From: Micavibrio aeruginosavorus
GTDB taxonomy: Bacteria > Pseudomonadota > Alphaproteobacteria > Micavibrionales > Micavibrionaceae
Direction: 5' to 3'
DNA: 64,000 nt
Assembly (NCBI GenBank): GCA_016432265.1
Contig: CP066681.1
Span: 458,342 to 522,341, forward strand
Made by a program: the position numbers and the translations under genes
Shown here: piece by piece, positions 3,731 to 44,685 of the stretch
How positions within the stretch are numbered: the first letter of the stretch is position 1
Layout of the letters: the number at the start of each line of letters is the position of its first letter
Notes under the pieces: model-generated
Seen by the model: the letters and a program-made list of their open reading frames with translations, nothing else
What the model was told of the DNA's origin: nothing
Databases searched by the model: none

Positions 3731-5122
3731 TTATGCGACTGCCGCATACAGCGCAACCGCTGCCGCGTTGGAAACATTCAGGCTGGGGATCGGGCCATCC
3801 ATGCGGATTTTGACCAGAACATCGCAATGTTCCTTGACCAGATGGCGCAGGCCCGGGCCTTCCGATCCCAGCACCAGCGCCAGACGCTCGATGCCTTTCA
3901 GCGAATCGACGGTTTGTTCACCGCGCTCATCAAGTCCGGCGACGGTGTAGCCTTCGGTCTGCAGGGCTTCGATCGTGCGGGAAAGGTTGGTTTCATAGGC
4001 AACCATGACATGTTCGACGGCGCCGCAGGCGGCTTTGGCCACAACGCCGGTCAATTCAGGCGCGTTGCGGCGCTGCATGACGACGCCATCGCCGCCCAGT
4101 GCGCAGACGCTGCGGATGATCGCGCCCACATTATGCGGGTCTGTCACCTGATCCAGAATAACCACCAACGAGCGATTCTTGTTTTTGCCGCGGTTGATGA
4201 TGTCCTGAATGAAAACCTCCTCCGGTTCGGCGGCGGTCGCGGCCACGCCCTGATGCACGGCGTCGCGCGGCAGGTGCTTGTCGAGGTCTTCACGTCCGAC
4301 CAGCGTTGGTTCCGGGCGGTGGATGCCGGCGGTGCGGGCTTCCTCCATGACCGGGGCGAACAGCTTCAGTTCTTCTGGTGTGGTATAGAGCGCGCTGATG
4401 GTGCGCGCAGGGTTCAGCCACGCGGCCTTTACGGCGTGTTGGCCCCAGAGATTGGCCTGAATTCGTACGCGTGGCGTGGATGTGCTGCCGCTTAACGTTT
4501 CTGCGCCGATTCTGGTCTTGCGTTCGCGCGGTGCGGGCGCGGCGGGGGCGTCGTCGGCGAAGCGGCCCTTAAAGGGCTTTCGGGCGGCGTATTTGCCCTG
4601 TGATGCGGGGCGGGCTTTGGCATCGCGTTTCGGTTTACGTGGAGTTTCACTTTCATCACGCATATAACGGCGGGGCGTGCCGGCGCGTTCGCCGCTATCG
4701 CGACGCGGCGGGCGGCTGTCCCGGTCGCGATCGGCGTAAGAACGTTTGGGTTTGTCGCCGCGTTCGCTATAGGAACGACGGGGCTTGTCGTCACGGTCGC
4801 TATAGGCCCGCTTCGGACGATCCTCGCCGTAGCTGCGGCGGGGTTTGTCATCCCGGTCACTGTAGGCGCGCTTGGGGCGCTCCTCACCGTAAGAACGGGC
4901 TGACGCGCGCGGGGGCCTGTCGTCACGTTCGCTGTAAGGGCGCCGGGGGCGCTCCTCACGCTCGCCACGGGTGGGGTGGTTGTCGCGATCCCCATAGGAG
5001 CGTTTGGGCTTGTCATCACGGCTCCGGGCTCCGCCTGTACGACCGAAACCGCCGGATTTCCCGCCTGAACGACCGGCGGGTTTACCGCCTTTACCACCTT
5101 TATTGCCAAATTCGCGCGCCAT
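3731..5122 (-). CDS. rlmB: TrmH/SpoU-family 23S rRNA 2'-O-methyltransferase (RlmB-like) with a ~200-aa N-terminal R/K/D/E-rich repetitive extension
   Basis: The C-terminal half has SpoU methylase motifs (LVVILDQVTDPHNVGAIIRS, LVLGSEGPGL, IPSLNVSNAAAVALY). The N-terminus consists of RSYGEDRPKRAYSDRDDKPR-type 20-aa repeats. Confidence 0.75.
   Translation of the reverse strand: MAREFGNKGGKGGKPAGRSGGKSGGFGRTGGARSRDDKPKRSYGDRDNHPTRGEREERPRRPYSERDDRPPRASARSYGEERPKRAYSDRDDKPRRSYGEDRPKRAYSDRDDKPRRSYSERGDKPKRSYADRDRDSRPPRRDSGERAGTPRRYMRDESETPRKPKRDAKARPASQGKYAARKPFKGRFADDAPAAPAPRERKTRIGAETLSGSTSTPRVRIQANLWGQHAVKAAWLNPARTISALYTTPEELKLFAPVMEEARTAGIHRPEPTLVGREDLDKHLPRDAVHQGVAATAAEPEEVFIQDIINRGKNKNRSLVVILDQVTDPHNVGAIIRSVCALGGDGVVMQRRNAPELTGVVAKAACGAVEHVMVAYETNLSRTIEALQTEGYTVAGLDERGEQTVDSLKGIERLALVLGSEGPGLRHLVKEHCDVLVKIRMDGPIPSLNVSNAAAVALYAAVA
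4740..4930 (-). repeat. Imperfect 60-nt tandem repeats encoding the Arg/Lys-rich N-terminal extension of the rlmB-like gene
   Basis: Repeated ...cgctataggaacgacggggcttgtcgtcacggtcgctataggcccgcttcgg... units; the protein period is 20 aa. Confidence 0.6.
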
Positions 5123-5239: not shown

Positions 5240-5325
5240 GGAGAGATGGCTGAGCGGTCAAAAGCACCTGACTGTAAATCAGGCGCCTTCGGGCTACGTA
5301 GGTTCAAATCCTGCTCTCTCCACCA
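5240..5325 (+). tRNA. tRNA-Tyr (anticodon GTA), long variable arm
   Basis: GGAGAGA acceptor stem pairs with TCTCTCC, then discriminator A and CCA. The anticodon loop is CTGTAAA with GTA at the anticodon position. The T-stem is GTAGG/CCTGC with loop TTCAAAT. Confidence 0.9.
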
Positions 5326-5361
5326 CCAAGTTTAACTTATTGATATAAAATAATAAAAAAA

Positions 5362-5383
5362 CCCCGCAGAAGCGGGGTTTTTT
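5362..5383 (+). terminator. Rho-independent terminator after tRNA-Tyr
   Basis: CCCCGC-agaa-GCGGGG hairpin followed by a TTTTTT run. Confidence 0.8.
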
Positions 5384-5488
5384 ATGCGTCTGGGTTTTGG
5401 GATCACTCGGGGAAAATTGTCTTAAGAGATTGAAAAATCATCATTTTCTCCACGACCATTAGTGCAAGCTGCCCCCTAGGCAGGCGGG

Positions 5489-5686
5489 TTAAAAACATGT
5501 GAAGTACCGATTTTGCAGATTATAATAGCAGCCATTATAATTTCCAATGTGTCTGGCGTGCGATGATTGGACAATTGCAAGTGTTGCCGCCAAGACAATG
5601 CCGACGATGGATATACCGCTTATTATCCTTATAAAGGAAGCTTGTGCTTTATTCGGCGTCTTAATGTTCATAAAGACTTCCTGCAC
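5489..5686 (-). CDS. Hypothetical small membrane protein (single predicted TM helix)
   Basis: The 65-aa ORF contains the hydrophobic stretch FIRIISGISIVGIVLAATLAIV. It lies in AT-rich DNA with no other support. Confidence 0.25.
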   Translation of the reverse strand: MQEVFMNIKTPNKAQASFIRIISGISIVGIVLAATLAIVQSSHARHIGNYNGCYYNLQNRYFTCF

Positions 5687-5949
5687 TATGTTGTATGTAC
5701 AAGAGTCATGTAGGTTTCACGTTGTGAATCTTTATCGGATTCATCCAGGCAGCCATTGCGAAGAACCAGGCAGTATGTAGTGATAATGATATTGAATGTT
5801 GATTGGATCAGTATCTCGATATCTTCATTCCCTGTCTTTTTTGCTTCGCCCTTAAGGTAAACCAAGGCTTCGATAATGCCGACTATTCTTGTGTAATCGT
5901 ATTCTTTAATTTCATGCGGCCCGTTTAGAATCTTCATATTCTCCTCCAT
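5686..5949 (-). CDS. Hypothetical 87-aa protein immediately downstream of the LuxI-family gene
   Basis: ORF co-oriented with and overlapping the 3-prime end of the luxI-type gene. The arrangement recalls the small GinA-type proteins found downstream of ginI in acetic acid bacteria, but no sequence comparison was possible. Confidence 0.4.
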   Translation of the reverse strand: MEENMKILNGPHEIKEYDYTRIVGIIEALVYLKGEAKKTGNEDIEILIQSTFNIIITTYCLVLRNGCLDESDKDSQRETYMTLVHTT

Positions 5950-6553
5950 TTAGCAAAAGTACAGATTCTTTGATTTGGCTTGTTTGCCGTATGCGGAGTA
6001 GCTGTCGCGGCGTGATTTCCATGACGGCAGCCCTGATCAGCATGTTGTCTACCTCTATTCCACCGCCCAGATATTCGAAAGAGCAACCCGCCTTTCCAAA
6101 AACTGACCGGAGTATGAATGTCGGCATGACGCCAATTATATTTTTGATTCCTAGCCGCATTCCCAGCTCTACATGAGCCGCCACAAGCTCATTGCTAATA
6201 ATCCTGCGAACGTGGGCGGGGAGGCTTCTTTCAACGCAAAAGCGCGTTGACTCCCATACGTCATGATCTGTGAATATAGACTGATCGTTTACAAGCTCTG
6301 GCCATAAATCTTTAATCATGCAGCATTGAGAAACCGGCGTTAGTCTGCTCAACCCCAATGCTTCTCCAGAAACTTCATCGCGGTAGACAAGGTATATTGT
6401 AGCAGGGGTGTCGTATTGGTCGTACTCCATCCCGTTATAAGAACTGACGGCGTATCCCTGCCTTTCTTTGAAGGAGCGATATCGAAGCCGGAATAGTGAG
6501 GGGAATGCCGGCCCGTATTCATGCAAGTTATTATAGGTCAGGTAAGATATCAT
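5912..6553 (-). CDS. Acyl-homoserine-lactone synthase, LuxI family
   Basis: Autoinducer-synthase motifs are present: FRLRYRSFKERQGY near the N-terminus, a conserved acidic/Trp block, and WESTRFCV matching the LuxI ExSRxxV block. The 213-aa length is typical. Confidence 0.85.
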   Translation of the reverse strand: MISYLTYNNLHEYGPAFPSLFRLRYRSFKERQGYAVSSYNGMEYDQYDTPATIYLVYRDEVSGEALGLSRLTPVSQCCMIKDLWPELVNDQSIFTDHDVWESTRFCVERSLPAHVRRIISNELVAAHVELGMRLGIKNIIGVMPTFILRSVFGKAGCSFEYLGGGIEVDNMLIRAAVMEITPRQLLRIRQTSQIKESVLLLNGGEYEDSKRAA

Positions 6554-6607
6554 GGCCCCAGGTTCTTCTCGTAGGGCTTATTAAAGAAGATATTGCGCGC
6601 GAATTAA

Positions 6608-6625
6608 ATCACGAGAATTCGTGAT
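6608..6625. promoter_or_regulatory. lux-box-like palindrome ATCACGA-GAAT-TCGTGAT, about 63 nt upstream of the luxI-type start
   Basis: Dyad with perfect 7-bp arms, lying between the luxR-type stop and the luxI-type start. A second copy sits at 8552-8569. Confidence 0.6.
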
Positions 6626-6627
6626 AT

Positions 6628-7395
6628 TTATAAATGCACCAACCCTAAAGTGATGGCTTTTACAACGGCCAAAACGCGGTTGTTTGCTTCAAGCTTCCTG
6701 AAGACTTTGCGCATATGTGAATCAACCGTGTTTTTGCTCATATTCAAAATGAGGCCTATCTCTGTGTCAGTTTTTCCAAGCGCGGCCCATTTCAGAACTT
6801 CACGCTCTTTATCCGTCAAAACTATATTTTGTTCTTGCTCTTGCTCTTGCGTCTTTCGCCTCAAGATTCTTTTATAGGCAATGTAGAAGTGGTTGCAATA
6901 TGCATTAACCATATCGACATTGCCATCAAACGCATCTTTCCTTTCGGTAGTGGCCAGGGCAATGCCGGCCAGCTGGTTCTGTGGCCCCCGTAGCGGCGTG
7001 CATACGCCGTTGCGCAATCCAGCTTCGTCCCCCATATCCAGGCAGAGCTTCTGTTTCCTTGAGAGAAGTATGCGCTTTGGAATATCATCCCATGAAAAAG
7101 TATCGATCTGCGTAGCGCCATAGAGCATCACAGGATCTATGTATTTCAGGTTATTGCTGCTGTAGTATTTTAACCAGCTCTCAGGATAGTTATGCACGAT
7201 CCCAAAATCTGCTTCCTGCCCGATATCATGGTGATCTGTGGAGAGTGAGAATATGGCCCTATCCAGTCCGTGCTGAGCAACGGTTTTTAAAAAAATAGAG
7301 AATAGTGTATCAACGTCACGAGCCTGGTTAGCTTCCGTAACATAATCTTCGAAAGAGTAATTTCTCAGTCCTGCGGACACAGCTAATCCCCCCAC
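6628..7395 (-). CDS. LuxR-family transcriptional regulator (autoinducer-binding domain plus C-terminal HTH)
   Basis: Its C-terminus reads LTDKEREVLKWAALGKTDTEIGLILNMSKNTVDSHMRKVFRKL, a GerE/LuxR-type HTH. The N-terminal ~170 aa resemble an AHL-binding domain (YxxxW...D, WDD motifs). It lies directly upstream of luxI on the same strand. Confidence 0.85.
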   Translation of the reverse strand: MGGLAVSAGLRNYSFEDYVTEANQARDVDTLFSIFLKTVAQHGLDRAIFSLSTDHHDIGQEADFGIVHNYPESWLKYYSSNNLKYIDPVMLYGATQIDTFSWDDIPKRILLSRKQKLCLDMGDEAGLRNGVCTPLRGPQNQLAGIALATTERKDAFDGNVDMVNAYCNHFYIAYKRILRRKTQEQEQEQNIVLTDKEREVLKWAALGKTDTEIGLILNMSKNTVDSHMRKVFRKLEANNRVLAVVKAITLGLVHL

Positions 7396-7610
7396 ATGGT
7401 CAAGCTTAACCGGTCATATACAACCTCAAGTTATATTTTTCAAGAAAAATTACAATAATTCTTGATCCAGTTGTACATTTAACCTGTTGATTACAGAGGT
7501 GTGCATAGGGCCAGATCGGCCTGTTTTCTAAAAAAACATGGAAAAACAAGTAAATAGCAGCATGATGCCAGGCGCATGTGAATAGGCTGGTCGTCCAGTC
7601 AGATGTCTGC

Positions 7611-8510
7611 TCAGCCCGCCTGCATGAGTTTTCTGTGTTCTTGCAGCAGCGGTTTAACGGCTTCAGGAAGAAATTCTTTAAATCCCCTGTTTTTAATATT
7701 CTCCCCTTGCAAAAGTAAGATGGGGTCATGACCCTCGATGCAACCTAGGTTGGGGGCGTGGACAAAGTAGCCTATCAATCTTTGTAATTTTTCAGGAAGC
7801 GCCCTGGCCGTGTCTTGCGGTATGGCGAGGTAACTGTTCTCTGCCTGCCTAAGCCAGCCTAAACAGTAGCTGACAACCACCCCGGTTCGGCTTCCGGCGC
7901 TGTTGTTAGTTCCCCCTGCATGGAGTAATGAGCCAAGCCATATAAGTACAGATCCTGCTTTCATAACGGCCGGGATGATTTCGTGATTGCAAGCGCTCCT
8001 GTCCCGTGGCCACTTATGACTGCCTGGCACAACAAGCGTGGCGCCGTTTTCGTTTGTAAAGTCGTCTACGGCCCACATGCAATTGACCATAGCTTCAGTA
8101 CCTTCATGGTCAAAAGGAAACATGACGTCATCGCGATGCAGGGGCTGTCTGAATTCACCGGGGCCAATTCTTATGGCTTGCGTTAAATGCAACTGATATT
8201 GCTCGCATGATCGCAGCAAAAAGTGATCCATGATGTTAAGAACGGTATTATGGGCTACCATAGACCATGATTGCCGTGACTTTACAAGCAACGAGCTGAG
8301 CCTCTTGGTTTTATATCCGTAGAAATCGCCATGACAGCTATCTGTTTCATCGAAATGAGGTTTAAGCTCTTGAGACAATCTGAGCACCTGCTGTTCGGAT
8401 AAGATACCTTTTATAATGATACAGCCATCTGTCTCTAATATTCTTTGAATGACCCTTATGTCTTCATATATGCCAACCTGTTGGATTCTGGCCATGATGC
8501 TACCTCCCAT
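7611..8510 (-). CDS. Phytanoyl-CoA dioxygenase (PhyH) family Fe(II)/2-oxoglutarate oxygenase
   Basis: HRDD...(facial-triad His-x-Asp), ATLVVPGSHKW and a distal His are typical of PhyH-family proteins. The probable true start is MARIQQ at 8495. Confidence 0.7.
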   Translation of the reverse strand: MGGSIMARIQQVGIYEDIRVIQRILETDGCIIIKGILSEQQVLRLSQELKPHFDETDSCHGDFYGYKTKRLSSLLVKSRQSWSMVAHNTVLNIMDHFLLRSCEQYQLHLTQAIRIGPGEFRQPLHRDDVMFPFDHEGTEAMVNCMWAVDDFTNENGATLVVPGSHKWPRDRSACNHEIIPAVMKAGSVLIWLGSLLHAGGTNNSAGSRTGVVVSYCLGWLRQAENSYLAIPQDTARALPEKLQRLIGYFVHAPNLGCIEGHDPILLLQGENIKNRGFKEFLPEAVKPLLQEHRKLMQAG

Positions 8511-8551
8511 AATCTGAGCAAATACACTAAGGGTTTCCCTGCTTGAGAAGA

Positions 8552-8569
8552 ATCACGAAATCTCGTGAT
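8552..8569. promoter_or_regulatory. Second lux-box-like palindrome ATCACGA-AATC-TCGTGAT in the divergent intergenic region between the PhyH and desaturase genes
   Basis: Same 7-bp arms as the palindrome at 6608-6625. Its centre is about 65 nt upstream of the PhyH MARIQQ start and about 67 nt upstream of the desaturase ATG. Confidence 0.55.
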
Positions 8570-8626
8570 TCATGGTGAGCCGGCTTTTCTACTATTCTGG
8601 CCGGCAGACAGTAAGGGAGGTTCAAT

Positions 8627-9550
8627 ATGCCCGGTGTTAGCAGAGATTACTTGGCGTCCAGAGTCACTACTGAGCATTTGAAAATGCTGCATAAACGCTC
8701 TGTATTTCCGTGGCTGAAGGACGCGATTATAGACTGGGTCGTGATTGCGGTCGCCATAGCTGCGGCTGGAATATGGAATAATCCCTTGGGCTACGTAGCG
8801 GCGGTTATCGTCGTGGGGAACAGGCAACATGCTCTGGCCTGCCTGGGGCATGATGGGACGCATTTCCTCCTGTCTACTAAAAGAAAACTGAATGATACCT
8901 TGTCCGGGTTTTTAGCCTGGTATCCATTAGGCATTACGAATTCCGGCTACAGGAGCCTTCATAACAGGCACCATATATACTTAAACACGGAAGACGACCC
9001 TGAAATACACCATAAACGTTCCCGGGCGCCGCAATGGGATATACCTATAACGCCCCAGAGAATTATAATGTACGTGCTGCTTGATCTGGTGGGTTACTCA
9101 ATTCCTGATTATTATATAATCGTAACCTATTCTAAAGCCACCAGAAAAACGGAATATGTGCTGTTGGCCGCTTATCATCTGTCGTTTATTGCTGTCTTTC
9201 TGGCGGCGGGCTTATGGTGGGTTCCCTTGATATGGTACGTATCCTTAGTTACCTCATTCATGATGTTTTTTAGGCTGCGCCTTTGGCTTGAGCACCAGGG
9301 AACTGATTTGGTGCATAGGCTGGAGTTGAATGGGTGGCAATCTGCATTGTTTTATCCGCATTTGGCCTGGCATCACTGGGAACACCATCAATGGCCTGCC
9401 GTTCCGTACCATCGCCTGCCTGAGTTAAGAAAAATGGTTGAAGATGTTCCGGTGATTACGCTTCAGCAACTTTGGGAACACTTTAATTCATTGCCAAACA
9501 TATCTTCAGGCACGCCATTGAGTAATGGCATACCTGCAGATTCGGCTTGA
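8627..9550 (+). CDS. Membrane fatty-acid desaturase/hydroxylase family protein (three histidine boxes)
   Basis: Histidine boxes HDGTH, HNRHH and HHWEHH, with several TM segments. Confidence 0.75.
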   Translation: MPGVSRDYLASRVTTEHLKMLHKRSVFPWLKDAIIDWVVIAVAIAAAGIWNNPLGYVAAVIVVGNRQHALACLGHDGTHFLLSTKRKLNDTLSGFLAWYPLGITNSGYRSLHNRHHIYLNTEDDPEIHHKRSRAPQWDIPITPQRIIMYVLLDLVGYSIPDYYIIVTYSKATRKTEYVLLAAYHLSFIAVFLAAGLWWVPLIWYVSLVTSFMMFFRLRLWLEHQGTDLVHRLELNGWQSALFYPHLAWHHWEHHQWPAVPYHRLPELRKMVEDVPVITLQQLWEHFNSLPNISSGTPLSNGIPADSA

Positions 9551-9624
9551 ATGGAATAATTGTTTTAGAATGAATAATATTCATAAATGAATTATGCTCT
9601 GGAATCTGCGGTTTATAGTCGGTG

Positions 9625-10005
9625 TCAGGCGCTTTTGCTGTTGAGGCGAACAAAATTCTCTACCAGACGAACGATATTATTCTTAGTGGACGTATCCTGA
9701 ATCTTCTGCCAGTTGGCGATAAGGGTTCTTGTCTGGGGATCGTATAGGCTGTCTACCTCATCACAATTCGAGACTTTCTCGTATATATCGGTGAATTTCC
9801 GTATGGGAACATTCAGGAAGTTAGCGATCTGCAATAAACAGACGACTGTAATTCTGCTGGAGCCGGATTCGTATTTTTGTACCTGCTGGTATGAGACTCC
9901 TATGGCACGGGCTACTTCTTCAAGACTCCTGCCTTGGGCTTTTCTTTCAGCGCGAATGATTTTTCCCAGTATCACGTCGCGACTGTCTTCATTTGCCTTA
10001 CCCAT
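9625..10005 (-). CDS. XRE-family helix-turn-helix transcriptional regulator
   Basis: The N-terminal region RAERKAQGRSLEEVARAIGVSYQQVQKYESG matches the Cro/C1-type HTH pattern. Confidence 0.65.
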   Translation of the reverse strand: MGKANEDSRDVILGKIIRAERKAQGRSLEEVARAIGVSYQQVQKYESGSSRITVVCLLQIANFLNVPIRKFTDIYEKVSNCDEVDSLYDPQTRTLIANWQKIQDTSTKNNIVRLVENFVRLNSKSA

Positions 10006-10338
10006 ATCACCTCTTGCGTTTTTAACTAATGTTGAATAGCGGGTGCAGTGATTTTACTAGCAAAGTGGTACCATGGAAACTGAGTTGCCAAGCTAACAAT
10101 ATTTGACGATATCCTACTTAATCTACAACCTTTAATAAATTTATGTGAAAACGCGCACTTGAGCAGGCCCTCGCAAGTGAGTTCGGTCTTGTCGGCATAT
10201 TGGGGAGCAAGTCACTTCGGGAGTCGTTAACTGTAGGCTGCTTCCACCGGCTATCAAGTTTAAATACTTTATGCAGAGGTGAAAACGGCAAGATGCCCCG
10301 TAAGCCGGGGAATTTTTATTCTCTGCCGCGGGGGGTTT

Positions 10339-13300
10339 TTAGGCCACAATCAACCCATTATCATACAGGGTCTGGACGTTTAGGCCCGTGACGGCGCTTA
10401 ATGTGGCGACATTTGTCCACGACGTACCCCCTGTGAGGCCATCGGCGTCAATTCTGACTGTTGTATTGCCGCCTAAAACGCTAAAGGAAACGAAGTTGTC
10501 TATGTCATCTACGCCGGGCGTGAAACCGGCGAGAATATTGCTGATATCAAGAATATCAAACTGGGTGGTGCGGTAATCTGTAATTGTATCGACGCTTGAA
10601 ACGTTATCCAGAACAAATCGGTCAGTGCCGTTACCACCTGTAAGCGTGTCAGCGCCCGCGCCACCTTGAAGCCAATCGTTACCGTTATTGCCGACCAGGG
10701 TGTTGTTGCCTGCTGATCCATACAGCGTGTCGGCGCCAGCGCCGCCGTATAAATTTTCGAAGTCAAAGAAAGTATCGCCGTTGGCTTCGCCGCCAGAGGC
10801 TGTCCCGGCTCCCAGATTAACGGACACGCCTGCCGTATCGTTATCATAACGCAGACCGTCCGTGCCGTTGCCGCCGTATAGTGTGTCGGCGCCGCTGCCG
10901 CCGTATATTGAATCGTTGCCGTCAAGCCCATAGATCATATCGTTACCGGCGGCTCCGGACAGAGTATTGTTTCCGTTCGAACCTGTCAGGGTATCGGCAG
11001 CGCTGCCGCCATACAGATTCTCAAAATTTGAGATGATATCGCCTGTGGCATCACCGCCTGCGGCTGTATTGTTTCCGATATCGACAACAACAGATACCGT
11101 GCTGCTATCGTAACGCAGGCTGTCTGTGCCGTTGCCGCCGTCCAAGGTGTCGGCGCCGCTGCCGCCGTATATTGAATCGTTGCCGTCAAGCCCATAGATC
11201 GTATCGTTACCGGCGGCTCCGGACAGAGTATTGTTCCCGTTCGAGCCTGTCAGGGTATCGGCAGCGCTGCCGCCATACAGATTCTCGAAATTTGAGATGA
11301 TATCGCCTGTGGCATCACCGCCTGCGGCGGTGTTGTTGCCTATATCTACGGTGACGCCGGAGGTGTCTGAATCGTAGCGCAAGCTATCCGTTCCTGTGCC
11401 GCCGTCCATTGTATCTGCGCCAGTGCCGCCATAAATAGTATCATTGCCGCCGTCGCCGTAGATCGTGTCGTTGCCGTTCTGTCCGTAGATCGTGTTCGCT
11501 GCTGTCGATCCTGTGATCGTATCGCTTCCCGACCCGCCATATATATTCTCAAACCCTGATACAACATCTCCTTCCGCTTCGCCGCCGCTGCCCAGGCCTG
11601 TCAGAAGGTTGATGGCAACACCGATTGTGTCCGCGTCGTAGCGAAGGGCATCTGTACCGGCCCCGCCCGTCAGTGTGTCCGCGCCCAGACCTCCGTATAC
11701 CGTGTCGTTGCCGTCGCCGGCGTCTATGCCGTCGTCGCCGTCAAGACCGTATATAACATTGGCAAGGGCCGACCCGGTAATTGTATCGGAAAAAGCGCTG
11801 GCATAAACATTCTCAAAATTGGAAACCACATCGCCTTCTGCGTCTCCGCCGCTTCCCAGCCCGGTCAGTAGGTCTACCGTGACGCCGCTTACCGAAGCGT
11901 CATAACGCAAATTGTCCGTTCCGGCACCGCCGTCCAGCACATCGGCTCCGGCGCCGCCGTAGACCGTGTCGTTGCCGCCGTCTCCGTATATGGCATCATC
12001 GCCATCCAGGCCATAAATAATGTTGGCAGCAATGGTTCCATATAAGGTGTCGTTATAAGAAGACCCGGTCAGATTCTCAAAAGAGGAGATTGTATCCGTC
12101 CCCGCGCCGCCGGTATTTTGCGCCGTTGTCACTGAAAGATTAACAGTCACGCCTCCGGATGATGATTGGTAGGTCAGTGTATCGGTGCCGCCGCCGCCTG
12201 AAAGGGTGTCGTTGCCATCCCCGCCGTCAATTGTGTCGTTGCCGTTGCCGCCGTTAATCACGTTATTGCCCGAATTGCCTGATAGAGTATCGCTGTAGGA
12301 AGATCCGGTCAGATTCTCAAAAGAGGAGATTGTATCCGTCCCCGCGCCGCCGGTATTCTGGGCGGTCGCCAGGGCAAGGTCAACAGTCACGGCAGAAGAT
12401 GATGTCGCATAGGTTACCGTGTCGGTGCCGGCCCCCCCTGTGAGCGTATCGTTGCCAGCGCCGCCGTTGATGGTATCATTGCCGTTGCCGCCATCGATAA
12501 TGTTGTCGTCCGTGCTGCCTGTGAGCGTATCATTGAAGGAAGAGCCTGTCAGATTTTCGAAGCCGGATATTGTATCCGTGCCGCCGCCGCCCGTGTTCTG
12601 AGCTGTTGCAACCGCCAGATTGACAGTGACAGCCGAAGCGATCGTTGCATATGTCAGCGTGTCCACGCCGGTGCCGCCTATAAGGGTATCATTACCGGTG
12701 CCGCCGTTGACGATGTCGTTGCCGGCGCCGCCGTCTATGGTGTTGGCTCCTGTGTTTCCGGTTAGAATGTCATCGAAATCGGAGCCGGTCAGGTTTTCAA
12801 AGGAAGCAATAGTGTCGGTTCCTGCGCCGCCGGTATTCTGGGCGGTCGCCAGGGCAAGGCTGATAGCTATGCCTCCTAGCGAGCCTGTATAGCTCAGAGT
12901 ATCTGTTCCCCCGCCGCCATTCATGACGTCATCGCCGCCACCACCTTCTATGACGTTGTTCCCTGCCGTTCCAGTAATGTTATCGTTGAATGCCGAGCCG
13001 ATGACGTTTTCAAACCCGGATATTGTGTCGTTCCCCGATCCGCCGGTGCTCTGGGTCGTGGTTATGGCCAGATTGATCGTAACGTCGGAAACAGCATCGG
13101 CGTATGACAGGGTATCTATGCCGGCATCGCCGTCCAGCGTATCATCCCCAGATCCGCCATCGATGGTATCGTTACCGTTTCCGCCTGCGATCACATTGTT
13201 TCCGGAATCTCCTGTGATGGCGTCGTCAAAAGCCGAGCCTGTGATATTCTCGATAGATAGCAGACTATCTCCGTTACCGTATCCATCATTGCTGGCGCTG

Positions 13301-15303
13301 CCAGCCGCCAGGTTGGCGCTTATTCCGGCTGCTGCTGCGGCATAGCTGGCTGTATCCATGCCATTTCCGCCGTTGAGCGTGTCTGCTCCGTCCTCTCCGC
13401 TCAGGATATCGTTACCGTCATTACCGATCAGGATATTGCCGCTGCTGTTCCCTGTCAGAACATCATCAAAAGCCGAGCCTGTGATATTTTCAAAATTATA
13501 GAGCGTATCGGTGCCTGCGCCTATAGTGTCTTGCGCTACGGTCAGGCTTATATTGACATTAACGCCCAAGGTAGCTGAGGCGTAATTGACCGTATCAATA
13601 CCCGCGCCGCCATCGAGTATGTTATTGCTCGCCGTCCCTGTAAGGATATCGTCGTGGGCAGAACCAGTTAAATTCTCAAAGTTCGATAAGGTATCGCTGC
13701 CGGATCCGCCTGTATTTTGTGCAGTTGTAGCAGATAGGTCAACCGTTACCCCGGCGGCTGCGCTGGCGTAAGTCAACGTATCGCTATCTGCGCCGCCATC
13801 GAGTATATCGTCGCCGTCGCCGCCGTCTATGACATCAAGGCCTTCATCGCCATTGATGGTATCTGCGCCGCCGCCGCCGTTGATCGTATCATTTCCTGCC
13901 AAGCCGTAAATCTGGTTGCTGCTTGATGAACCATTAAGAAGATCGTCGCCAGCAGTGCCGTAAATCACACTGCCGTCGACTTGAATGGCGATCGTTTCCG
14001 TATAAAATGCGCCTGCGGCATCTGTAACCCTGACATCTATATTGATAATATCGCCGTAGGTATGGCTTGCCAGTCCTCCTGCCTTTAAGAGAACGCTGTT
14101 ACCCGATATTTCAAAAGCATATGTAGCGCCGCCGACTATACTGAATGTCAGTATGTCCCCGGCATCGGGATCTGTGGCCGAAAGCGTCGATACCAGCGTT
14201 CCCGCCGGCGCATCAAGAAGGACGATATCGCCGACATAGCTAATGTCTGTCGGCGCGTCATTAAGAAGATCGGCAAGTGTGCCCGGTGTGATCGTACGGT
14301 CAGAGAACTGAAATGTTTCAATGCCCTTAATCGTGTCTGTTCCCTCAAATCCGCGCCGATCCACGATTGTGAAGAACGTGGTAGAGGTGTCGTAGGTAAT
14401 ATTATAATCGCCCCATTGGCCGCCAAGAACCAGGATATCCGTTCCGGAGCGGCCGTCGATATAATTATTCCCGCTGTCTCCGCTCAGGGTGTCATTGTAA
14501 GACGATCCCCAGAGATTTTCAAAATTCGATACCGTATCAATCCCGCCGGAACCGGTATTCTGTGCTGAGGTTACTGCCAGGTTGACGGTGACTCCTGAAA
14601 GCATTCCCACGTAGGATAGGGTGTCTATGCCGTTGCCGCCATCCAGCGTATCGTCCCCGGCGTCGCCGCGGATATTGTCATCGCCATCCCCGCCCAGAAT
14701 AATGTCGTTGCCAGCGGCGCCTTCCATAAAGTTTGAAGCGCTGTCGCCCGTCAGGGAGTCGGCGTAAGCTGTCCCTACAAGGTTCTCTATGTTGATGATT
14801 GTGTCTGTGCCGGCCCCCAGAGTATCCTGAGCGACATAAATTCCAAGGTTCACGGTTATACCGGCAGAGGCTTGGGAATAATTAAGAATGTCGATACCCG
14901 CTCCACCGTCGATTGTGTCGTTGCCCGTCATTTCGATGATTGTGTCGTTGCCTGAGCCGGCGTCAAGAATATCGTTGCCGCCGCCGCCATTCAGCAAATC
15001 GTTGCCGTCGCCACCGTACAGGGCGTCGTGTCCATGCATGCCAGTAATGGTATCGCTGCCCTCATATCCATAAACGGTATCTGATGCCAATGTTCCGGAA
15101 ATGATATTGTTTGCGCTATCGCCATAGACGGGGAGGGCGCTGCCCCATCCTTCGCCGCTCAGGGTGAAGGAGAGGCTTGTCAGGTCGAATGTGATGTCGT
15201 TGAAAACGATATATTCGACATCGTTGTAGACGCGGTCGGCGCCGTATCCTGTGGAAGGATTGTTGGTATCCGCCGCGCAATGTGTCCGCGCCGTCATCGC
15301 CAT
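10339..15303 (-). CDS. Giant RTX/hemolysin-type calcium-binding repeat protein, C-terminal ~1650 aa, with a type I secretion C-terminal target domain
   Basis: Dozens of GGxGxDxL nonapeptide-containing ~90-aa modules ([29 protein letters not shown]...). The C-terminus reads [39 protein letters not shown], as in T1SS C-terminal target domains. There is no N-terminal signal peptide. Confidence 0.8.
10861..11330. repeat. Near-identical ~270-bp tandem modules within the RTX gene (one of several module families)
   Basis: 10861-11060 and 11131-11330 are about 95 % identical. They encode RYDSx[79 protein letters not shown]. Confidence 0.75.
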
Positions 15304-16120
15304 AGAGAGCGTCGTTCTGCGTGCCTCCGCTCAGGGTATCTGCGCCGTTGCCGCCATAAAGGAGATCAGCGCCCGCCGAACCGTTGACAGTATCGTTGCC
15401 GTCGCCGCCGGACAGCGTATCGGCGGACTGTGTTCCGTTCATCGTATCGTTGGCGGATGTGCCAAAGACAGGGAGGGCGCTGCCCCATCCTTCGCCGCTC
15501 AGGGTGAAGGAGAGGCTTGTCAGGTCGAATGTGATGTCGTTGAAAACGATATATTCGACATCGTTGTAGACGCGGTCGGCGCCGTATCCTGTGGAAGGAT
15601 TGTTGGTATCCCCGCCTTGCAGCGTATCGGAACCCGATCCGCCGTACAGGGCGTCGTTGCCGGCGTCGCCGCGCAATGTGTCCGCGCCGCTGCCGCCGTA
15701 TAAACTGTCTGCTCCGCCATTGCCGCTTAACGTATCGCTCCCTCCCAGCCCGAGCATAACGTCATCGTTGCCGGTGCCTGACAGGCTGTCTGCTCCTTGC
15801 GTTCCTGTGATCGCCCCCGCTGGCTCCCCGATATTCAGTACAACAACCGCCGTGTCTGTTCCGCCGTTGCCGTCGGTCAGGGTATAGGAAAACGATGCCG
15901 TGCCAATGATATCTTCCCACAGAATGCTGTTGTAAAATCCGTAGGCGTTCAGTTGTATGGTAATCCCGGTAGAAGAGACGACAGATGATTGTGCAATCGA
16001 AAGGGTGTCTCCATCAGCGTCAAAATCAGCGCCTGCCCCATTGTCGGCAAACAGGTTGCCATTTGAAATGGCGCCGTAAACACCTGAAATATTATCGTCT
16101 TGGGCGACAGGATTACTCAT
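15116..16120 (-). CDS. N-terminal ~330 aa of the same RTX repeat protein; reading frame broken at ~15271 (probable single disrupted gene 10339..16120)
   Basis: ATG at 16120. The translation shares the block [50 protein letters not shown] with the downstream ORF. Its last ~50 codons are out-of-frame read-through of the downstream ORF. Confidence 0.6.
15131..15611. repeat. Two perfect 141-bp direct repeats (15131-15271 and 15471-15611) inside the RTX gene; the first copy is followed by a 56-nt deletion relative to the second
   Basis: Identical gggagggcgctgccccatcc...ggaaggattgttggtatcc blocks. After the block, copy B continues cccgccttgcagcg...ggcgtcg, which copy A lacks. 56 is not a multiple of 3, so the frame shifts. 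Confidence 0.85.
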
Positions 16121-23185: not shown

Positions 23186-23259
23186 GCGGGTGTAGCTTAA
23201 TGGTAAAGCTCCAGCCTTCCAAGCTGGCTACGTGGGTTCGATTCCCATCACCCGCTCCA
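23186..23259 (+). tRNA. tRNA-Gly (anticodon TCC)
   Basis: GCGGGTG acceptor pairs with CACCCGC, then T and CCA. The anticodon loop CTTCCAA carries TCC. T-stem GTGGG/CCCAT with loop TTCGATT. The integrase gene lies immediately 3-prime. Confidence 0.9.
23240..23253. repeat. attL core: GATTCCCATCACCC within the 3-prime part of tRNA-Gly
   Basis: An exact 14-bp copy recurs at 28318-28331. Confidence 0.7.
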
Positions 23260-23382
23260 ACCGCCTCTTCACCGACATTCACCGCTGTTCACTGACGTTC
23301 GCAAAGTCATTGTAAAACAAAGGACTTCCAGGCGTTTTCTGTTCATGCTAGTATTTTTCCGTTCACCCGCGACCGCCAATTT

Positions 23383-23445
23383 TGGGGGCATCGATGGGGG
23401 CAGATCGAAAAACGTGGGGGCATCGAAGCCCCAAAATTGGGGGCA
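23383..23445. promoter_or_regulatory. Four TGGGGGCA iterons (candidate integrase arm-type sites) upstream of or overlapping the int start
   Basis: TGGGGGCA at 23383, 23395, 23415 and 23438. The last copy is embedded in the palindrome GCCCCAAAATTGGGGGC. Confidence 0.55.
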
Positions 23446-23447
23446 TC

Positions 23448-24677
23448 GTGAAGTTATCGGACAAAACATGCAAAGCGGCAAAATCCAAGGAAAAGCCTTA
23501 TAAACTTGCCGATGGCGGGGGTTTGTATCTCGAAGTCATGCCCAACGGCTCCAAATGCTGGCGGATGAAGTACCGTTACCTGGGCAAGGAAAAGCGTCTG
23601 GCGTTCGGCGTGTACCCCGTTATCAGCCTTGCCGATGCCCGCACGGCCCGCGAGAGGGCCAAGAAACTATTGGCGCAGGGGATCGATCCTTCCGGCGCGA
23701 AGAAGGAAGAGAAGCGGGAGGCGATCCGCAACGCTGAGAATACCTTCAAGGCCGTTGCGCTGGAATGGCACGAAAACCAGTTGTCCCGCTGGACACCCAC
23801 CCATGCCCAAAATGTCACCCGCCGTTTTGAGGTCGATATTTTCCCCTTTATTGGGAACCGGCCCATTGCGGAAATTGACCCGCCCGAATTGCTTGAGGAA
23901 GTCCTGCGGCGGATTGAAAAGCGCGGGGCATTGGATGTAACGGCGCGGGTGAAGCAGATTTGCGGACAGGTTTTCCGCTACGGCATTGCGACGGGCCGTT
24001 GCCAGCGCGATCCCACCGCCGACCTGAAAGGGGCATTGAAGGCCAATCAGACCCAGCATTTCGCGTGTCTCGATATTAAGGAAATGCCAGAGTTTTTGGA
24101 CAAGCTGGAAAAGAACGATGCGCGGCTTTACCATCGCACCCGCCGCGCCATCCGGCTGTTGATGCTCACCTTTGTCCGCACCAACGAATTGATTAACGCA
24201 ACATGGGACGAATTCGACCTTGATAACGCCCTTTGGGAAATCCCCGGCTGGCGGATGAAGATGCGGAACCCCCATATCGTACCGTTATCGCGGCAAGCCG
24301 TAGCCTTGCTGCGGGAGCAGAAGGAAGAAACGGGCCATCTCAATACGCCGTGGGTGTTTCCCAGCCAGGTACGCCCGAAAGACCCGATGAGCAATAACAC
24401 CATCCTGTTTGCCATCGGGCGCATGGGCTATAAAAAGCGCATGACCGGCCACGGCTTCCGCGCCCTTGCCATGTCGAATATCAAGGAAAAGCTCGGTTAC
24501 CGGCACGAGGTTGTTGACCGCCAGCTTGCTCACGCGCACAAAAACAAAATCGACCGCGCTTATGACCGGGCGCAGTTTCTTGATGAGCGCACCACGATGA
24601 TGCAAGAATGGGCGGATTATATGGATGCAGTGGCGAAGGGCGGCGGAAAAATCGTAAAATTCAAGAAAGCGGCATAA
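23448..24677 (+). CDS. int: Tyrosine recombinase / phage-type integrase (P4-like, with an N-terminal arm-DNA-binding domain)
   Basis: VKLSDKTCKAAKS...YKLADGGGLYLEV...GSKCWRMKYRYLGKEKRLAFGVYP matches the P4-type N-terminal domain. The C-terminal catalytic region has R...HGFR...H..R..Y-type residues (HGFRALAMSN...RQLAH..KNKIDRAYDR). The likely start is GTG at 23448; the track shows a TTG-extended ORF from 23382. Confidence 0.9.
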   Translation: MKLSDKTCKAAKSKEKPYKLADGGGLYLEVMPNGSKCWRMKYRYLGKEKRLAFGVYPVISLADARTARERAKKLLAQGIDPSGAKKEEKREAIRNAENTFKAVALEWHENQLSRWTPTHAQNVTRRFEVDIFPFIGNRPIAEIDPPELLEEVLRRIEKRGALDVTARVKQICGQVFRYGIATGRCQRDPTADLKGALKANQTQHFACLDIKEMPEFLDKLEKNDARLYHRTRRAIRLLMLTFVRTNELINATWDEFDLDNALWEIPGWRMKMRNPHIVPLSRQAVALLREQKEETGHLNTPWVFPSQVRPKDPMSNNTILFAIGRMGYKKRMTGHGFRALAMSNIKEKLGYRHEVVDRQLAHAHKNKIDRAYDRAQFLDERTTMMQEWADYMDAVAKGGGKIVKFKKAA

Positions 24678-35332: not shown

Positions 35333-35644
35333 ATGAACATAAAAGAAATGATGAAGAATGCCGATAAGGCATGCGATCTTTTGAAATCCCTGGCCCATCC
35401 CCACAGGCTGGGCATCGTCTGTCGTCTTATAGATGGCAAGGCTTCTGTAGGCGAGCTTGCTGAATTTGTGGGTCTGCGCGACTCTACGGTCTCGCAGCAC
35501 CTTTCCTTGTTGCGTAAGGACGGGATTGTAACGACGAGGCGTGAAGGTCAGATCATCTGGTATTCCATAAAGGATGATTCGGCCCGCCGGCTGGTTGAAT
35601 TGCTTCACAGTATCTATTGCAAAAATAGGAAGGAAGGGAAGTGA
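35333..35644 (+). CDS. ArsR/SmtB-family metalloregulator
   Basis: LKSLAHPHRLGIVCRLIDGKASVGELAEFVGLRDSTVSQHLSLLRKDGIV is a winged-HTH ArsR signature. The start is taken as MNIKEMMK. Confidence 0.75.
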   Translation: MNIKEMMKNADKACDLLKSLAHPHRLGIVCRLIDGKASVGELAEFVGLRDSTVSQHLSLLRKDGIVTTRREGQIIWYSIKDDSARRLVELLHSIYCKNRKEGK

Positions 35645-36621
35645 GCCCGGTTGCGCGCATTTTATTGACTGTGTCAATGCTGGCGTTGGTCGCAGTTCCT
35701 GCTGGGGCACAGGAGGATATTTGGGTTGCCAGATCGGTTCCGGTCAATGACATGAAGGCCGTTTTTGCAACCGTTGAAAGCACAAGCGTTATTGCGGCGC
35801 GGGCCCGCATAAACGGAACCCTGGCAGATCTTGCAGTGGATGAAGGGGATTTTGTGAAAGCCGGGCAGGTGGTGGCGAATATAGGAGATGAAAAGCTTTC
35901 CCTGCAGGTCAGTTCGCTTGATTCGCGTATCGGTTCAGCTCAGGCACAGTTGGATAAAGCAACGATAGATCTTAAGCGCACGAAAGAGCTGTTTGATAAA
36001 GGCGCGGTATCAAAGGCAAGGCTTGATGATGCGCAAACCCAGTACAGCATAGCACAAAGCGGCCTTAAAGCAGCCACATCAGACCGTGACGTGATCAGAA
36101 GGCAGATGAGTGAAGGTGGCGTTATTGCACCTGTGACAGGAAGGGTTCTTAAGGTTCCCGTTACCAAGGGCGCGGTCGTTATGCCGGGTGAAGTGATAGC
36201 GATGATTGCGGATCAGGATTACATCCTGCGTCTGAGCGTACCTGAGCGGCACGCGCGTTACATGAAGAAAGACGATTCCATACATCTTGCTAATGGCCAA
36301 CTGGGCAGGATTGAAACGGTATACCCCCAGATTGAAAACGGCCGTGTTATAGCGGATGCTGTCGCAGAAGGTCTGGGGGATTATTTCGTAGGCGAGCGCG
36401 TCCTTGTTTGGGTCGCCGGGGAAGAAAGGAAAACTATCGTTGTGCCGGCGCACTATATACTGTCTCAATATGGAATAGATTTTGTGAAAATTATAGCGGC
36501 TGATGGACGCGCAAGGAAAATCGCTGTGCAAAGAGGGATACCAATGCCTTTGCCGGACATGTCGAGGGGCGTTGAAATCCTTTCGGGGGTGCGCGAGGGG
36601 GATAAACTGGTAAAGCCATGA
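35641..36621 (+). CDS. Efflux RND periplasmic adaptor (membrane fusion protein, HlyD family)
   Basis: Signal/TM region, then coiled-coil and lipoyl-like segments and beta-barrel motifs typical of MFPs. It is translationally coupled to the RND permease. Confidence 0.8.
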   Translation: MSPVARILLTVSMLALVAVPAGAQEDIWVARSVPVNDMKAVFATVESTSVIAARARINGTLADLAVDEGDFVKAGQVVANIGDEKLSLQVSSLDSRIGSAQAQLDKATIDLKRTKELFDKGAVSKARLDDAQTQYSIAQSGLKAATSDRDVIRRQMSEGGVIAPVTGRVLKVPVTKGAVVMPGEVIAMIADQDYILRLSVPERHARYMKKDDSIHLANGQLGRIETVYPQIENGRVIADAVAEGLGDYFVGERVLVWVAGEERKTIVVPAHYILSQYGIDFVKIIAADGRARKIAVQRGIPMPLPDMSRGVEILSGVREGDKLVKP

Positions 36622-39600: not shown

Positions 39601-39830
39601 TGCGGGATGTCCTTCTTGATGCGGGGGCTGTGCGTTTCAAACCCATCCTTTTAACGGCCCTGGCAGCCATGATTGGCGCCGCCTCCATTTTGGGTGATCC
39701 GATTTTTCAGGGCCTCGCCATCTCTCTTTTATTCGGGTTGGCTTCTTCCACATTACTGACGGTTCTTGTCATCCCTGCGATATATATCCTCTTGCGGGGC
39801 GACGCTTATTCAAACAAAAAATTTACCTGA
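36618..39830 (+). CDS. Efflux RND transporter permease subunit (AcrB/CzcA superfamily)
   Basis: 1070 aa with 12 TM helices and two large periplasmic loops; N-terminal and internal blocks are typical of RND pumps. Confidence 0.9.
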   Translation: MKNLGLSGRLTELSIQSPLTPLFLLAALVLGLIALLTIPREEEPQISVPMVDIQVRADGLRAHDAAELITKPLEEIVKSIDDVEHVYSQTADDQVLVTARFLVGTDADSAILRVHEKVRANYGRIPHGIPEPLISGRGINDVAIVVLTLSADKQAADMWNEASLYRIAAELQSELAKVDNVGFSYLSGGSPESIRIEPDPEKMALYGVTLQQLIDKVNGANKSFSSGKVKGNNKTYAVVAGQTLAGEADIGLLLLTARNGRPVYVKDVARIMIGATPVENRVMTLRRDGEGSWEARPAISLALAKRAGANAVVVSRDILDRVETLKGTLIPEGIHVEVTRNYGRTADEKANELLFHLFLATITIVALIGFSIGWREAFVTLIVIPATILLTLLAAYLMGYTINRVSLFALIFSIGILVDDAIVVVENISRHWRMNDGRSQLQGAIEAVAEVGNPTIIATLTVVAALLPMTFVSGLMGPYMAPIPVNASAAMLFSFFMAIAVAPWLMMKVSALGKKERGQKDEGAIGRLYRKVAQPVIRTRKNSLLFLLSVGIVTLISFLPFATRSVTVKLLPFDNKSELQIVLDLQEGSTMEETERVLHQIAEELLPIPEIRSVQSYAGIAAPFNFNGLVRHYYLRQSPELGELQVNLSSKHERKENSHEIALHIRNRLEKMNLPSGTVLKVVEVPPGPPVLATLLAEIYGPDQESRQVVVRHLKSILKSVPYIVDVDDSIGASRPRLHVSIDQDRLEFFGVEQEDVYGTIQSLIGGVPAGYSYRGEGRDPLEIVIQMPKTDLNWTERLASTPVPANAMPGDRSVVELGDVVSVKYEEGSPVLFRHNGHFTDMIMAELAGSYEAPVYGMQDVGKLVKRYDWGTLTPPKIKFHGQPEDPMETVLLWDGEWEITYVTFRDMGIAFVAALLGIYILVAAQFHSFKLPFVILTPIPLTFIGIITGHWLFNAPFTATSMIGFIALAGIIVRNSILLADFIRHRQSKDAPLRDVLLDAGAVRFKPILLTALAAMIGAASILGDPIFQGLAISLLFGLASSTLLTVLVIPAIYILLRGDAYSNKKFT

Positions 39831-39843
39831 AGAGAGGTTCGTT

Positions 39844-40056
39844 ATGTGCTCATCCAATATTGACAAGGTTATCATGCGTTTTGCGGGTTCGACTGTGCTG
39901 CTTAGTCTTGTGCTGGCGCATTTTTCATCGCCTTTGTGGCTGTTTCTAACGGCTTTTGTAGGCTTTAACCTTTTACAAGCGTCATTCACCGGCTTTTGTC
40001 CGTTGGCTGCCCTTCTCAAGAAGAGTGGCATTAAGGCAGGGCCTGCTTTTGAGTAG
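39844..40056 (+). CDS. DUF2892 (YgaP-like) small inner-membrane protein
   Basis: IDKVIRFAGSTVLLSLVLA...FVGFNLLQASFTGFCPLAALL is the DUF2892 pattern. Confidence 0.55.
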   Translation: MCSSNIDKVIMRFAGSTVLLSLVLAHFSSPLWLFLTAFVGFNLLQASFTGFCPLAALLKKSGIKAGPAFE

Positions 40057-40124
40057 AATGTCCCGCGCGCTATAAGTATGCGCACGAAGGAAGGCGCTAG
40101 CTCATATTTCTCGGGAAGGATATT

Positions 40125-44411: not shown

Positions 44412-44685
44412 GCTCTCGATTATACAGGGGGAGGTTTTGTATCTCAAGACGCCATGGGTTTTTCTCCGGAAATCGAACCGTTTTGAATGAGAGGAAAACC
44501 ACCCCCATTTTGCCCGGAAAGGGCAAACCAGCATTGTTTTTATCCCGCAGGGCGGTAATATGCAGCTTCATAACAATATGCTGGGTACTCCAAGCTCTGC
44601 CCAGCCGCTTCGTGCAGCCAGGCCTGTCGTTATGACGTTTTGGGGAAACCTTAAGTGATTGTTATAAATTGAAAATCTGGTCATC

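Follow-up and report, generated by a model that had tools for sequence, protein, structure and literature searches.

We analysed a 64,000-nucleotide stretch of Micavibrio aeruginosavorus DNA (assembly GCA_016432265.1, contig CP066681.1, positions 458,342 to 522,341 of the forward strand), hereafter called the window. An islet of about 5 kb (~5390-10300) follows a tRNA-Tyr gene and carries luxI and luxR, which encode the synthase and the receptor for quorum sensing by acyl-homoserine lactone (AHL), the genes of a PhyH dioxygenase, of a membrane di-iron enzyme (Des) and of an XRE regulator, and an 87-aa open reading frame (ORF), small87, which overlaps the end of luxI. The GC content of the islet is 0.454, compared with 0.538 in the remaining window. 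Along the composition profile, the islet runs at 0.40-0.50 against 0.55-0.67 in the flanks, and the GC of third codon positions is ~0.50, as opposed to ~0.67 in the flanking genes.

An earlier note on this DNA had described a luxR/luxI pair in low-GC DNA directly after tRNA-Tyr, co-located with a PhyH oxygenase, a three-His-box membrane enzyme and an XRE regulator. Each of these elements was recovered: the LuxI and LuxR assignments are supported by Pfam and PDB matches and by conserved residues, the other three by matches to PF05721, PF00487 and HTH_3, and the Pfam, NCBIfam and PDB searches agree for all five proteins. The Pfam matches of the named islet proteins are all far above threshold (Table 1). 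All six ORFs of the islet are intact, full-length relative to their homologues and provided with Shine-Dalgarno sequences. Two further elements, small87 and a palindromic box shared by several promoters, had been overlooked.

In M. aeruginosavorus, one luxI and two luxR genes, non-adjacent and of unknown role, were reported in 2011 (PMC3189940). Our literature search found no description of luxIR coupled to PhyH or desaturase-type genes.

Table 1. Features of the islet and of its borders, in window coordinates
Feature	Position	Strand	Evidence and remarks
tRNA-Tyr (GTA)	5240-5325	+	left landmark of islet; ARAGORN; Rfam tRNA 64.6 bits
GC-rich hairpin with A/T-run flanks, bidirectional terminator-like	5356-5383		separates tRNA-Tyr from the end of the luxI operon on the minus strand; terminator scan
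65-aa ORF	5489-5686	-	one hydrophobic helix; abuts small87 stop; doubtful gene
small87, 83-87 aa	5686-5949	-	38-nt overlap with luxI end; second ATG (5937) has the better Shine-Dalgarno sequence
luxI, acyl-homoserine-lactone synthase	5912-6553	-	PF00765, 83.4 bits (cut-off 24), E=1.9e-23
Lux-box-like palindrome 1, ATCACGAGAATTCGTGAT	6608-6625		centre 63.5 bp upstream of luxI ATG; exact pattern match
luxR, AHL receptor/transcription factor	6628-7395	-	Autoind_bind PF03472, 86.5 bits, 1.7e-24; GerE PF00196, 57.2 bits, 1.3e-15
Degenerate box, ATTACAATAATTCTTGAT	7449-7466		3 mismatches; centre 62.5 bp upstream of luxR GTG
PhyH-family Fe(II)/2-oxoglutarate dioxygenase	7611-8495 (ORF to 8510)	-	PF05721, 132 bits (cut-off 22), E=3.6e-38
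Lux-box-like palindrome 2, ATCACGAAATCTCGTGAT	8552-8569		PhyH/Des divergent promoter; centre 65.5 bp to PhyH ATG (8495), 66.5 bp to Des ATG (8627)
Des, FA_desaturase/AlkB-superfamily membrane di-iron oxygenase	8627-9550	+	PF00487, 103 bits (cut-off 29.7), E=2.9e-29
XRE/HTH_3 regulator, 126 aa	9625-10005	-	PF01381, E=2.6e-14; N-terminal helix-turn-helix plus ~55-aa C-terminal region
XRE upstream region and right edge of islet	10006-10300		promoter-like site 10079-10051 (-)

LuxI and LuxR retain conserved residues of AHL pairs

Comparison of LuxI with proteins of known structure gives matches to TofI (2e-16), BjaI (6e-11) and RpaI (2e-6), and also to LasI and EsaI. The catalytic and S-adenosylmethionine-binding residues expected in this family are LuxI R25, F29, W35, E44, D46, D49, R70, E101 and R104. 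An alignment of 32 LuxI-clade members shows no variation at R24, E43, D45, D48, R70, E101 and R104 and a conservation of at least 90% at F28, while Tyr34 takes the place of the canonical LuxI Trp34 both in the window protein and in the clade consensus. LuxI is predicted to produce an AHL.

The match of LuxR to LasR (6e-22) extends along the whole protein, and the equivalents of Y56, W60, Y64, D73, P74 and W88 are kept. Since these six head-group residues, in LasR numbering, are invariant in 62 related receptors, the ligand should retain the homoserine-lactone (HSL)/amide head group.

A palindromic operator is shared by luxI and the two oxygenase genes

The dyad ATCACGA-N4-TCGTGAT has just two matches in the 64 kb, also when two mismatches are allowed, for a chance expectation of 0.26, and both exact copies fall in promoters of the module. 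One lies upstream of luxI and the other in the divergent promoter region between PhyH and Des. Its distances to the two start codons are nearly equal, and thus a single site is symmetrically placed for two divergent promoters; -10-like hexamers (TANNNT) are found ~30 bp to each side of it. The degenerate box upstream of luxR may be a weak autoregulatory site; boxes with three mismatches occur at chance level, and only the position of this copy is suggestive.

A similar arrangement is observed in the related cassettes. Nearly all of them carry a palindrome of 16-22 bp at the same PhyH/Des intergenic position, and in most loci it is perfect; the corresponding region in Asticcacaulis lies between LuxR and Des. 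The sequence of the palindrome is lineage-specific, with both arms changing together: ACCCTACGAAGGTTCGTAGGGT is found in several Acidobacteriota, and the other variants are ACCCCACGCGATCGCGTGGGGT, CACCTACGCTCTTACGTAGGTG, TATTACTTGATCAAGTAATA and ATCACGCGCGCGCGTGAT. In 14 related loci the lineage's own box is repeated 51-65 bp upstream of luxI. Of the 26 Des-upstream windows, 17 contain a perfect palindrome whose arms reach 8 nt or more, compared with 0.05 such palindromes expected per 160 bp (0.32/kb in these loci). The palindrome therefore behaves, to judge from its pattern of change, like a dimeric transcription-factor site that co-evolves with LuxR.

Because the exact palindrome is common to the luxI upstream region and to the PhyH/Des promoter, the two enzymes appear to be controlled by LuxR. 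We infer that luxI, PhyH and Des form one regulon in which LuxR would bind the palindrome. The dyad upstream of luxI would imply positive autoinduction.

PhyH and Des are probable small-molecule oxygenases

Translation of PhyH from the second ATG, the probable start, gives 294 aa, the form deposited as NCBI protein P0241. The facial triad H125-R-D127...H197 is present (numbering of the 299-aa ORF). The closest PDB relatives are DhiD, SwnH1/2, PrhA, AusE, AndA, SptF, FtmOx1 and AsqJ, with E values from 1e-29 to 1e-17 over ~240 residues; a search for literature on DhiD found none. On the other hand, human PhyH (2a1x) is matched at just E=7e-4 over 50 residues, and the assignment as phytanoyl-CoA 2-hydroxylase proper was rejected. 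By its sequence relationships, PhyH resembles the dioxygenases that tailor small-molecule natural products.

Des carries the His boxes H75xxxH79, H112xxHH116 and H250xxHH254, invariant in 26 sequences, and two hydrophobic hairpins. Its AlphaFold2 model (predicted local distance difference test, pLDDT, 85; predicted template-modelling score, pTM, 0.85) finds AlkB (8sbb, probability 1.0, TMq 0.45) and desaturase-like chains as best Foldseek matches. A search of PDB sequences with Des returned no match, nor did tblastn against the PLSDB plasmids. A lipid acyl-chain desaturase of the DesA or acyl-CoA desaturase type was considered and rejected: no NCBIfam desaturase model matches at E<0.01, and the neighbours of Des are luxIR, not lipid genes. 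The single NCBIfam match, the arginine hydroxylase GntB (NF041365), reaches 52.8 bits for a cut-off of 380 and was likewise discarded.

The description of the two enzymes as being of lipid-tailoring type was thus not upheld, as PhyH is nearest to natural-product dioxygenases and Des has no lipid-desaturase match. "Small-molecule oxygenases" is the safer label for both.

Two Des-like paralogues, 35% and 26% identical, occur in Pseudomonas fontis ID656 (L036:6430-16010; L numbers denote the related loci). The cluster there also encodes a PALP enzyme, an HMGL-like/haem-oxygenase-like fusion, a pyridoxal-phosphate (PLP) decarboxylase and a ketosynthase, and looks like an uncharacterised, amino-acid-derived biosynthetic one. 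We did not generalise Des to an "amino-acid hydroxylase"; the contexts of distant Des relatives in Nitrospirota and elsewhere are uninformative.

The oxygenases are co-inherited with one LuxI clade

Using a Des profile, 41 genome loci were fetched, and the genes of the module were mapped in them by tblastn. Two loci stand outside the counts that follow, namely L012, a 3.4-kb contig with no upstream flank, and L033, a lone C-terminal Des fragment. Where Des is at least 43% identical and the flank usable, luxR-luxI is directly adjacent in 27 of 27 loci, in the same divergent layout, whereas at 39% identity or less it is found in none of 12. The 27 loci span Alphaproteobacteria, with two other Micavibrio-like metagenome-assembled genomes (MAGs) and four Asticcacaulis species, and Acidobacteriota (Bryobacterales, Terriglobia, Acidiferrales). 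The comparison of synteny with other luxIR loci, which had been proposed as a check, thus places the enzymes within the module and not among chance neighbours.

In the reverse test, a LuxI-clade profile was run against metagenome contigs. Among the metagenome loci whose LuxI reaches 46% identity and which extend far enough upstream, 10 of 10 carry PhyH as well as Des; with LuxI at 33-45% identity, Des is found in none, and PhyH occurs alone in about eight. The module is variable in its composition and order. For instance, L046/47 carry PhyH without Des, divergent from luxI, and each gene has its own lux-box-like palindrome (TACTACGTACCCCCGTAGTA and ACCTACGTGGGTACGTAGGT in L046). In L082 and L113, PhyH belongs to a luxR-luxI-PhyH or luxR-luxI-small-PhyH operon, and the Asticcacaulis cassettes have Des without PhyH, the Des-luxR-luxI variant being carried by the cultured A. 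tiandongensis 3.1105 and A. machinosus LKC15W. The sister locus L048 (5188-10695; LuxI 38% identical) has, after luxR-luxI and a 105-aa ORF, genes for a fused E1 and for an E2 component of a 2-oxoacid dehydrogenase complex and an XRE gene, which suggests that the supply of an acyl-CoA precursor is encoded beside the synthase.

In the same loci, PhyH and Des show 48-61% identity as against 35-52% for LuxI. The cassette is abundant, with more than 120 Des clusters (90% identity) at 49% identity or above and more than 1,500 PhyH relatives; metagenomes of soil and freshwater commonly contain it. Acidobacteriota contigs of up to 1.9 Mb (L006, L008-L011, L024, L027, L029, L031 and L037) also bear complete luxIR cassettes, lux boxes included. 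We are aware of no experiment showing AHL signalling in Acidobacteriota, and a literature search on this point found nothing. In several long-read MAGs (L002/L031, L024, L029, L030, L034 and L037), luxR, PhyH and Des align in two or more pieces; these splits reflect either assembly errors at homopolymers or a cassette that is truly decaying.

small87 and XRE may form a quorum relay

A profile hidden Markov model of the small87 family has matches in at least 14 related loci (E 1e-21 to 1e-38), and more divergent small ORFs with an A-L-x-Y-L-x-x-E-A motif come after luxI elsewhere. The overlap with luxI also recurs, with 11-26 nt in L001, L002 and L049 (plasmid pASEM-1). No Pfam or NCBIfam family and no PDB sequence matches small87. 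In a single-sequence AlphaFold2 model, it forms a helical hairpin (helices 16-39 and 42-67); all Foldseek hits of this model are non-significant, and no link to TraM or other anti-activators emerged. For the 65-aa ORF that follows small87, tblastn gave no match across the related loci, and the ORF is unlikely to be a gene.

Homologues of XRE are present in most related cassettes, and in most metagenome loci the XRE gene stands immediately 3' of small87, in convergent orientation. In the CinS/PraR system of Rhizobium leguminosarum and the MmaP/PraR system of Methylobacterium fujisawaense, a small protein cotranscribed with the synthase binds an XRE-type regulator (PMC10790750). The architecture of such a relay, a small ORF overlapping luxI together with an XRE/HTH_3 regulator in the cassette, is found here. 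By analogy, small87 and XRE could constitute a CinS/PraR-like quorum relay, a proposal that we make tentatively and hold to be somewhat doubtful.

The islet resembles cargo of a mobile element

The islet adjoins the 3' end of a tRNA gene and deviates in composition, as tRNA-associated islands do. GC recovers to the genome level at 10339, the 3' end of an RTX gene. No integrase is encoded within 5.3-10.3 kb, the nearest being at 23382-24677, beside tRNA-Gly. No convincing att-like direct repeats surround the islet, the best pair matching at 14 of 18 nt (5327-5344 / 10255-10272), and no tRNA was found beside the cassette in other related loci. The Rfam scan gave the tRNA alone above threshold.

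Several related cassettes lie in a mobile-element context. The closest one, L001, with protein identities of 63-79%, shares its 11-kb contig with ParB/RepB genes; that of L002 adjoins relaxase and transposase genes; and TraG is next to the cassette on the Asticcacaulis excentricus plasmid pASEM-1 (L049). In a Micavibrio MAG (L007), the cassette lies 7 kb from a P4-type integrase which is 65% identical to that at 23382-24677 of the window. Horizontal acquisition is indicated because the composition deviates and homologous cassettes sit in such surroundings. The view of the earlier note, that the module is accessory and horizontally acquired, is therefore supported by the foreign composition and the mobile homologues, but finds no backing in an integrase or att repeats of the islet itself. 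The islet is best seen as cargo left behind by a plasmid- or integrative and conjugative element (ICE)-like element.

Other features of the window

A second island begins with tRNA-Gly and the P4-type integrase (Arm-DNA-bind_3, Phage_int_M and Phage_integrase domains), at 23186-24677, and extends with several Pfam-less ORFs to ~30000. To the right of the quorum-sensing islet, two RTX-repeat ORFs (10339-16120, minus strand) overlap by 188 nt in different frames. One, of 1654 aa, has 21 HemolysinCabind stretches and the other, of 334 aa, has Big_9, Cadherin_5 and RTX domains; they may represent a single adhesin of ~1.9 thousand residues broken by a frameshift. No lux box was found upstream of these RTX ORFs. 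Large adhesin-like genes flank the cassette in L020, L004, L044 and L046/47 as well.

On the other side of the islet, at 3731-5122 (minus strand), lies a gene for a SpoU-type RNA methyltransferase with an N-terminal extension of ~220 aa that consists of repeats rich in K, R, D and P (such as ...DRDDKPRRSY...); on both strands, this gene is overlapped by several long ORFs that are spurious. The region 35641-44534 encodes a resistance-nodulation-division (RND) efflux pair, consisting of an HlyD-like and a 1070-aa AcrB-family protein. Also encoded there is a 1469-aa inverse-autotransporter/beta-helix protein. The pair and the inverse autotransporter are ordinary envelope functions for an epibiotic predator.

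Discussion

We see an even chance that the oxygenases of the LuxIR cassette, auto-induced together with luxI, oxidatively tailor the AHL or its acyl precursor. In the mechanism that we propose, LuxI would make an AHL, and the ligand-bound LuxR would occupy the dyad ATCACGA-N4-TCGTGAT. At one copy of this site LuxR would switch on luxI and small87, and at the second, symmetric copy it would activate PhyH and Des divergently. PhyH and Des would hydroxylate and/or desaturate the AHL or its acyl-thioester precursor, and the outcome would be a mature oxidised AHL private to the carriers of the cassette. Finally, small87, co-translated with LuxI, would probably bind XRE and so pass the quorum signal on to further genes. 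Both the action of the enzymes on the signal and the chemistry of the signal are inferred; such action is favoured because of the strict, cross-phylum and modular co-inheritance of the enzymes with this LuxI clade. Each of the two alternatives in the earlier note, enzymes that modify the signal or a quorum-controlled lipid and enzymes that are quorum-regulated cargo, gains support.

Several observations weigh against this proposal. The cassette encodes no electron-transfer partner for Des, and six close relatives have no XRE gene within 10 kb by tblastn. The correlation between the pairwise distance matrices of the four proteins LuxI, LuxR, Des and PhyH (r=0.79-0.92) is a weak argument that shows movement as a unit, since linked genes on a mobile element co-vary whatever their function. 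Comparison of the receptor pockets of enzyme-linked and enzyme-free cassettes shows LasR F101 replaced by Cys in all PhyH-linked receptors and A70 by Asp/Glu, a hint of receptor adaptation to a modified product that is confounded by shared ancestry and low-identity alignment. In strain ARL-13, luxI was not expressed under laboratory predation, in an arrangement that differs from this cassette (PMC3189940). The shared lux box speaks to co-regulation and not to substrate, and is equally compatible with quorum-regulated cargo. The oxygenases would then be a quorum-controlled output at high density, acting for instance on a lipid of the membrane, on a hopanoid or carotenoid, or on a compound from the prey or the environment, within a minimal luxIR regulon. 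The fold and His boxes of Des, which are as in membrane lipid, alkane or carotenoid oxygenases, agree with such an output, and so does the fact that LuxI relatives of ~45% identity function where both enzymes are absent (L044, L049). LuxI activity as such does not, therefore, depend on the enzymes. We nevertheless consider a role as cargo rather unlikely, since each enzyme tracks the LuxI clade independently, in varied arrangements and even inside the luxI operon, no other output gene is conserved, and Des relatives outside the clade are never beside luxIR. Moreover, the cassette has crossed between phyla with very different envelopes, and PhyH is still 55-68% identical while LuxI drifts to 35%.

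The same enzymes could also oxidatively inactivate the AHL, as a built-in turnover or negative feedback. CYP102A1 oxidises AHLs and quorum-induced lactonases exist; both PhyH and Des are plausible oxidisers of acyl chains, and a quorum signal that induces them would set up a homeostatic feedback. A quencher co-transcribed with the synthase, as in L082 and L113, would however be futile, two different oxygenases exceed the need, and XRE with small87 is a more plausible source of negative control. The Cys common to the PhyH-linked receptors is a further, weak hint of a receptor adapted to the product, and we hold inactivation to be improbable. It is still less probable, in our estimation, that the islet is an inert plasmid or ICE remnant which landed by tRNA-Tyr and has no current role. 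Unlike L001 (ParB/RepB), L002 (relaxase) and L049 (TraG), it has no integrase, conjugation or replication genes, several of its relatives have split genes, and the predator attacks its prey one-to-one, with luxI of ARL-13 silent in RNA-seq (PMC3189940). Against inertness stand the six intact ORFs, the two boxes that are exact palindromes and the Shine-Dalgarno sequences. Oxidative tailoring of the signal thus stays the reading that we prefer.

Comparison with known systems shows where the cassette would depart from them. It shares with the canonical pairs (LasI/R, TraI/R, TofI/R) the catalytic residues, the six head-group residues, the GerE helix-turn-helix and a dyad of 18-20 bp ~60 bp upstream of luxI; it differs by the two oxygenase genes tied to the same operator and co-inherited, and by the change of Trp34 to Tyr. 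In known AHL systems, acyl-chain features come from intermediates of fatty-acid synthesis or from the choice of acyl-CoA. To our knowledge these systems have no dedicated enzymes for tailoring the acyl chain, and our literature search found no counter-example. BjaI (isovaleryl-HSL) and RpaI (p-coumaroyl-HSL) are detectable LuxI relatives with non-standard signals, and the sister locus L048 may likewise supply an acyl-CoA. The novelty there lies in substrate choice alone, whereas here it would come from the oxygenases, and the best PDB match of our LuxI is TofI, of the acyl carrier protein (ACP) type.

In terms of architecture, the cassette can be likened to CinR/CinI/CinS-PraR and MmaR/MmaI/MmaP-PraR, which have a small gene directly 3' of the synthase gene and an XRE-type regulator. 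In those systems praR is chromosomal and unlinked and oxygenases are lacking, whereas here XRE travels with the cassette. The homologous cassettes can also be compared with TraR/TraI/TraM of Ti plasmids and TraR/QseM/QseC of ICEMlSym, as they sit on plasmid-like or conjugative DNA and comprise a small helical protein along with a regulator of the XRE type; the islet of the window has, on the other hand, no transfer genes, and small87 no detectable similarity to solved structures. GntB- and AlkB-type enzymes have, as Des does, His boxes of the FA_desaturase type and a membrane di-iron fold, but Des is not a GntB orthologue. In concept, a parallel is offered by the Streptomyces autoregulators: for avenolide, the acyl-CoA oxidase Aco and a P450, which are clustered with synthase and receptor, complete the hormone. 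Neither the synthase and receptor nor the enzymes and signal chemistry are related to those of the cassette, and the parallel is an analogy only.

The diversity of AHLs is currently attributed to the acyl-ACP or acyl-CoA that the synthase accepts. At slightly less than even probability, the cassette is perhaps the first LuxI/LuxR system with dedicated oxidative tailoring before or after the synthase, in which lux-box-autoinduced PhyH and Des yield a new class of oxidised AHL and a private channel, mobile on plasmids and ICEs between Alphaproteobacteria, predatory Micavibrio among them, and Acidobacteriota. If this is true, AHL quorum sensing would gain a biosynthetic layer, like that of natural-product pathways, and a signal class not yet described would be predicted, possibly missed by standard biosensors and mass-spectrometry libraries. 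Since the Des-only variant occurs in cultured Asticcacaulis species, the tailoring idea is directly testable. For M. aeruginosavorus, the islet represents a complete and apparently functional quorum-sensing circuit in an obligate epibiotic predator. For the mobile elements that carry such cassettes, private oxidised AHLs would provide a mechanism for signal privacy.

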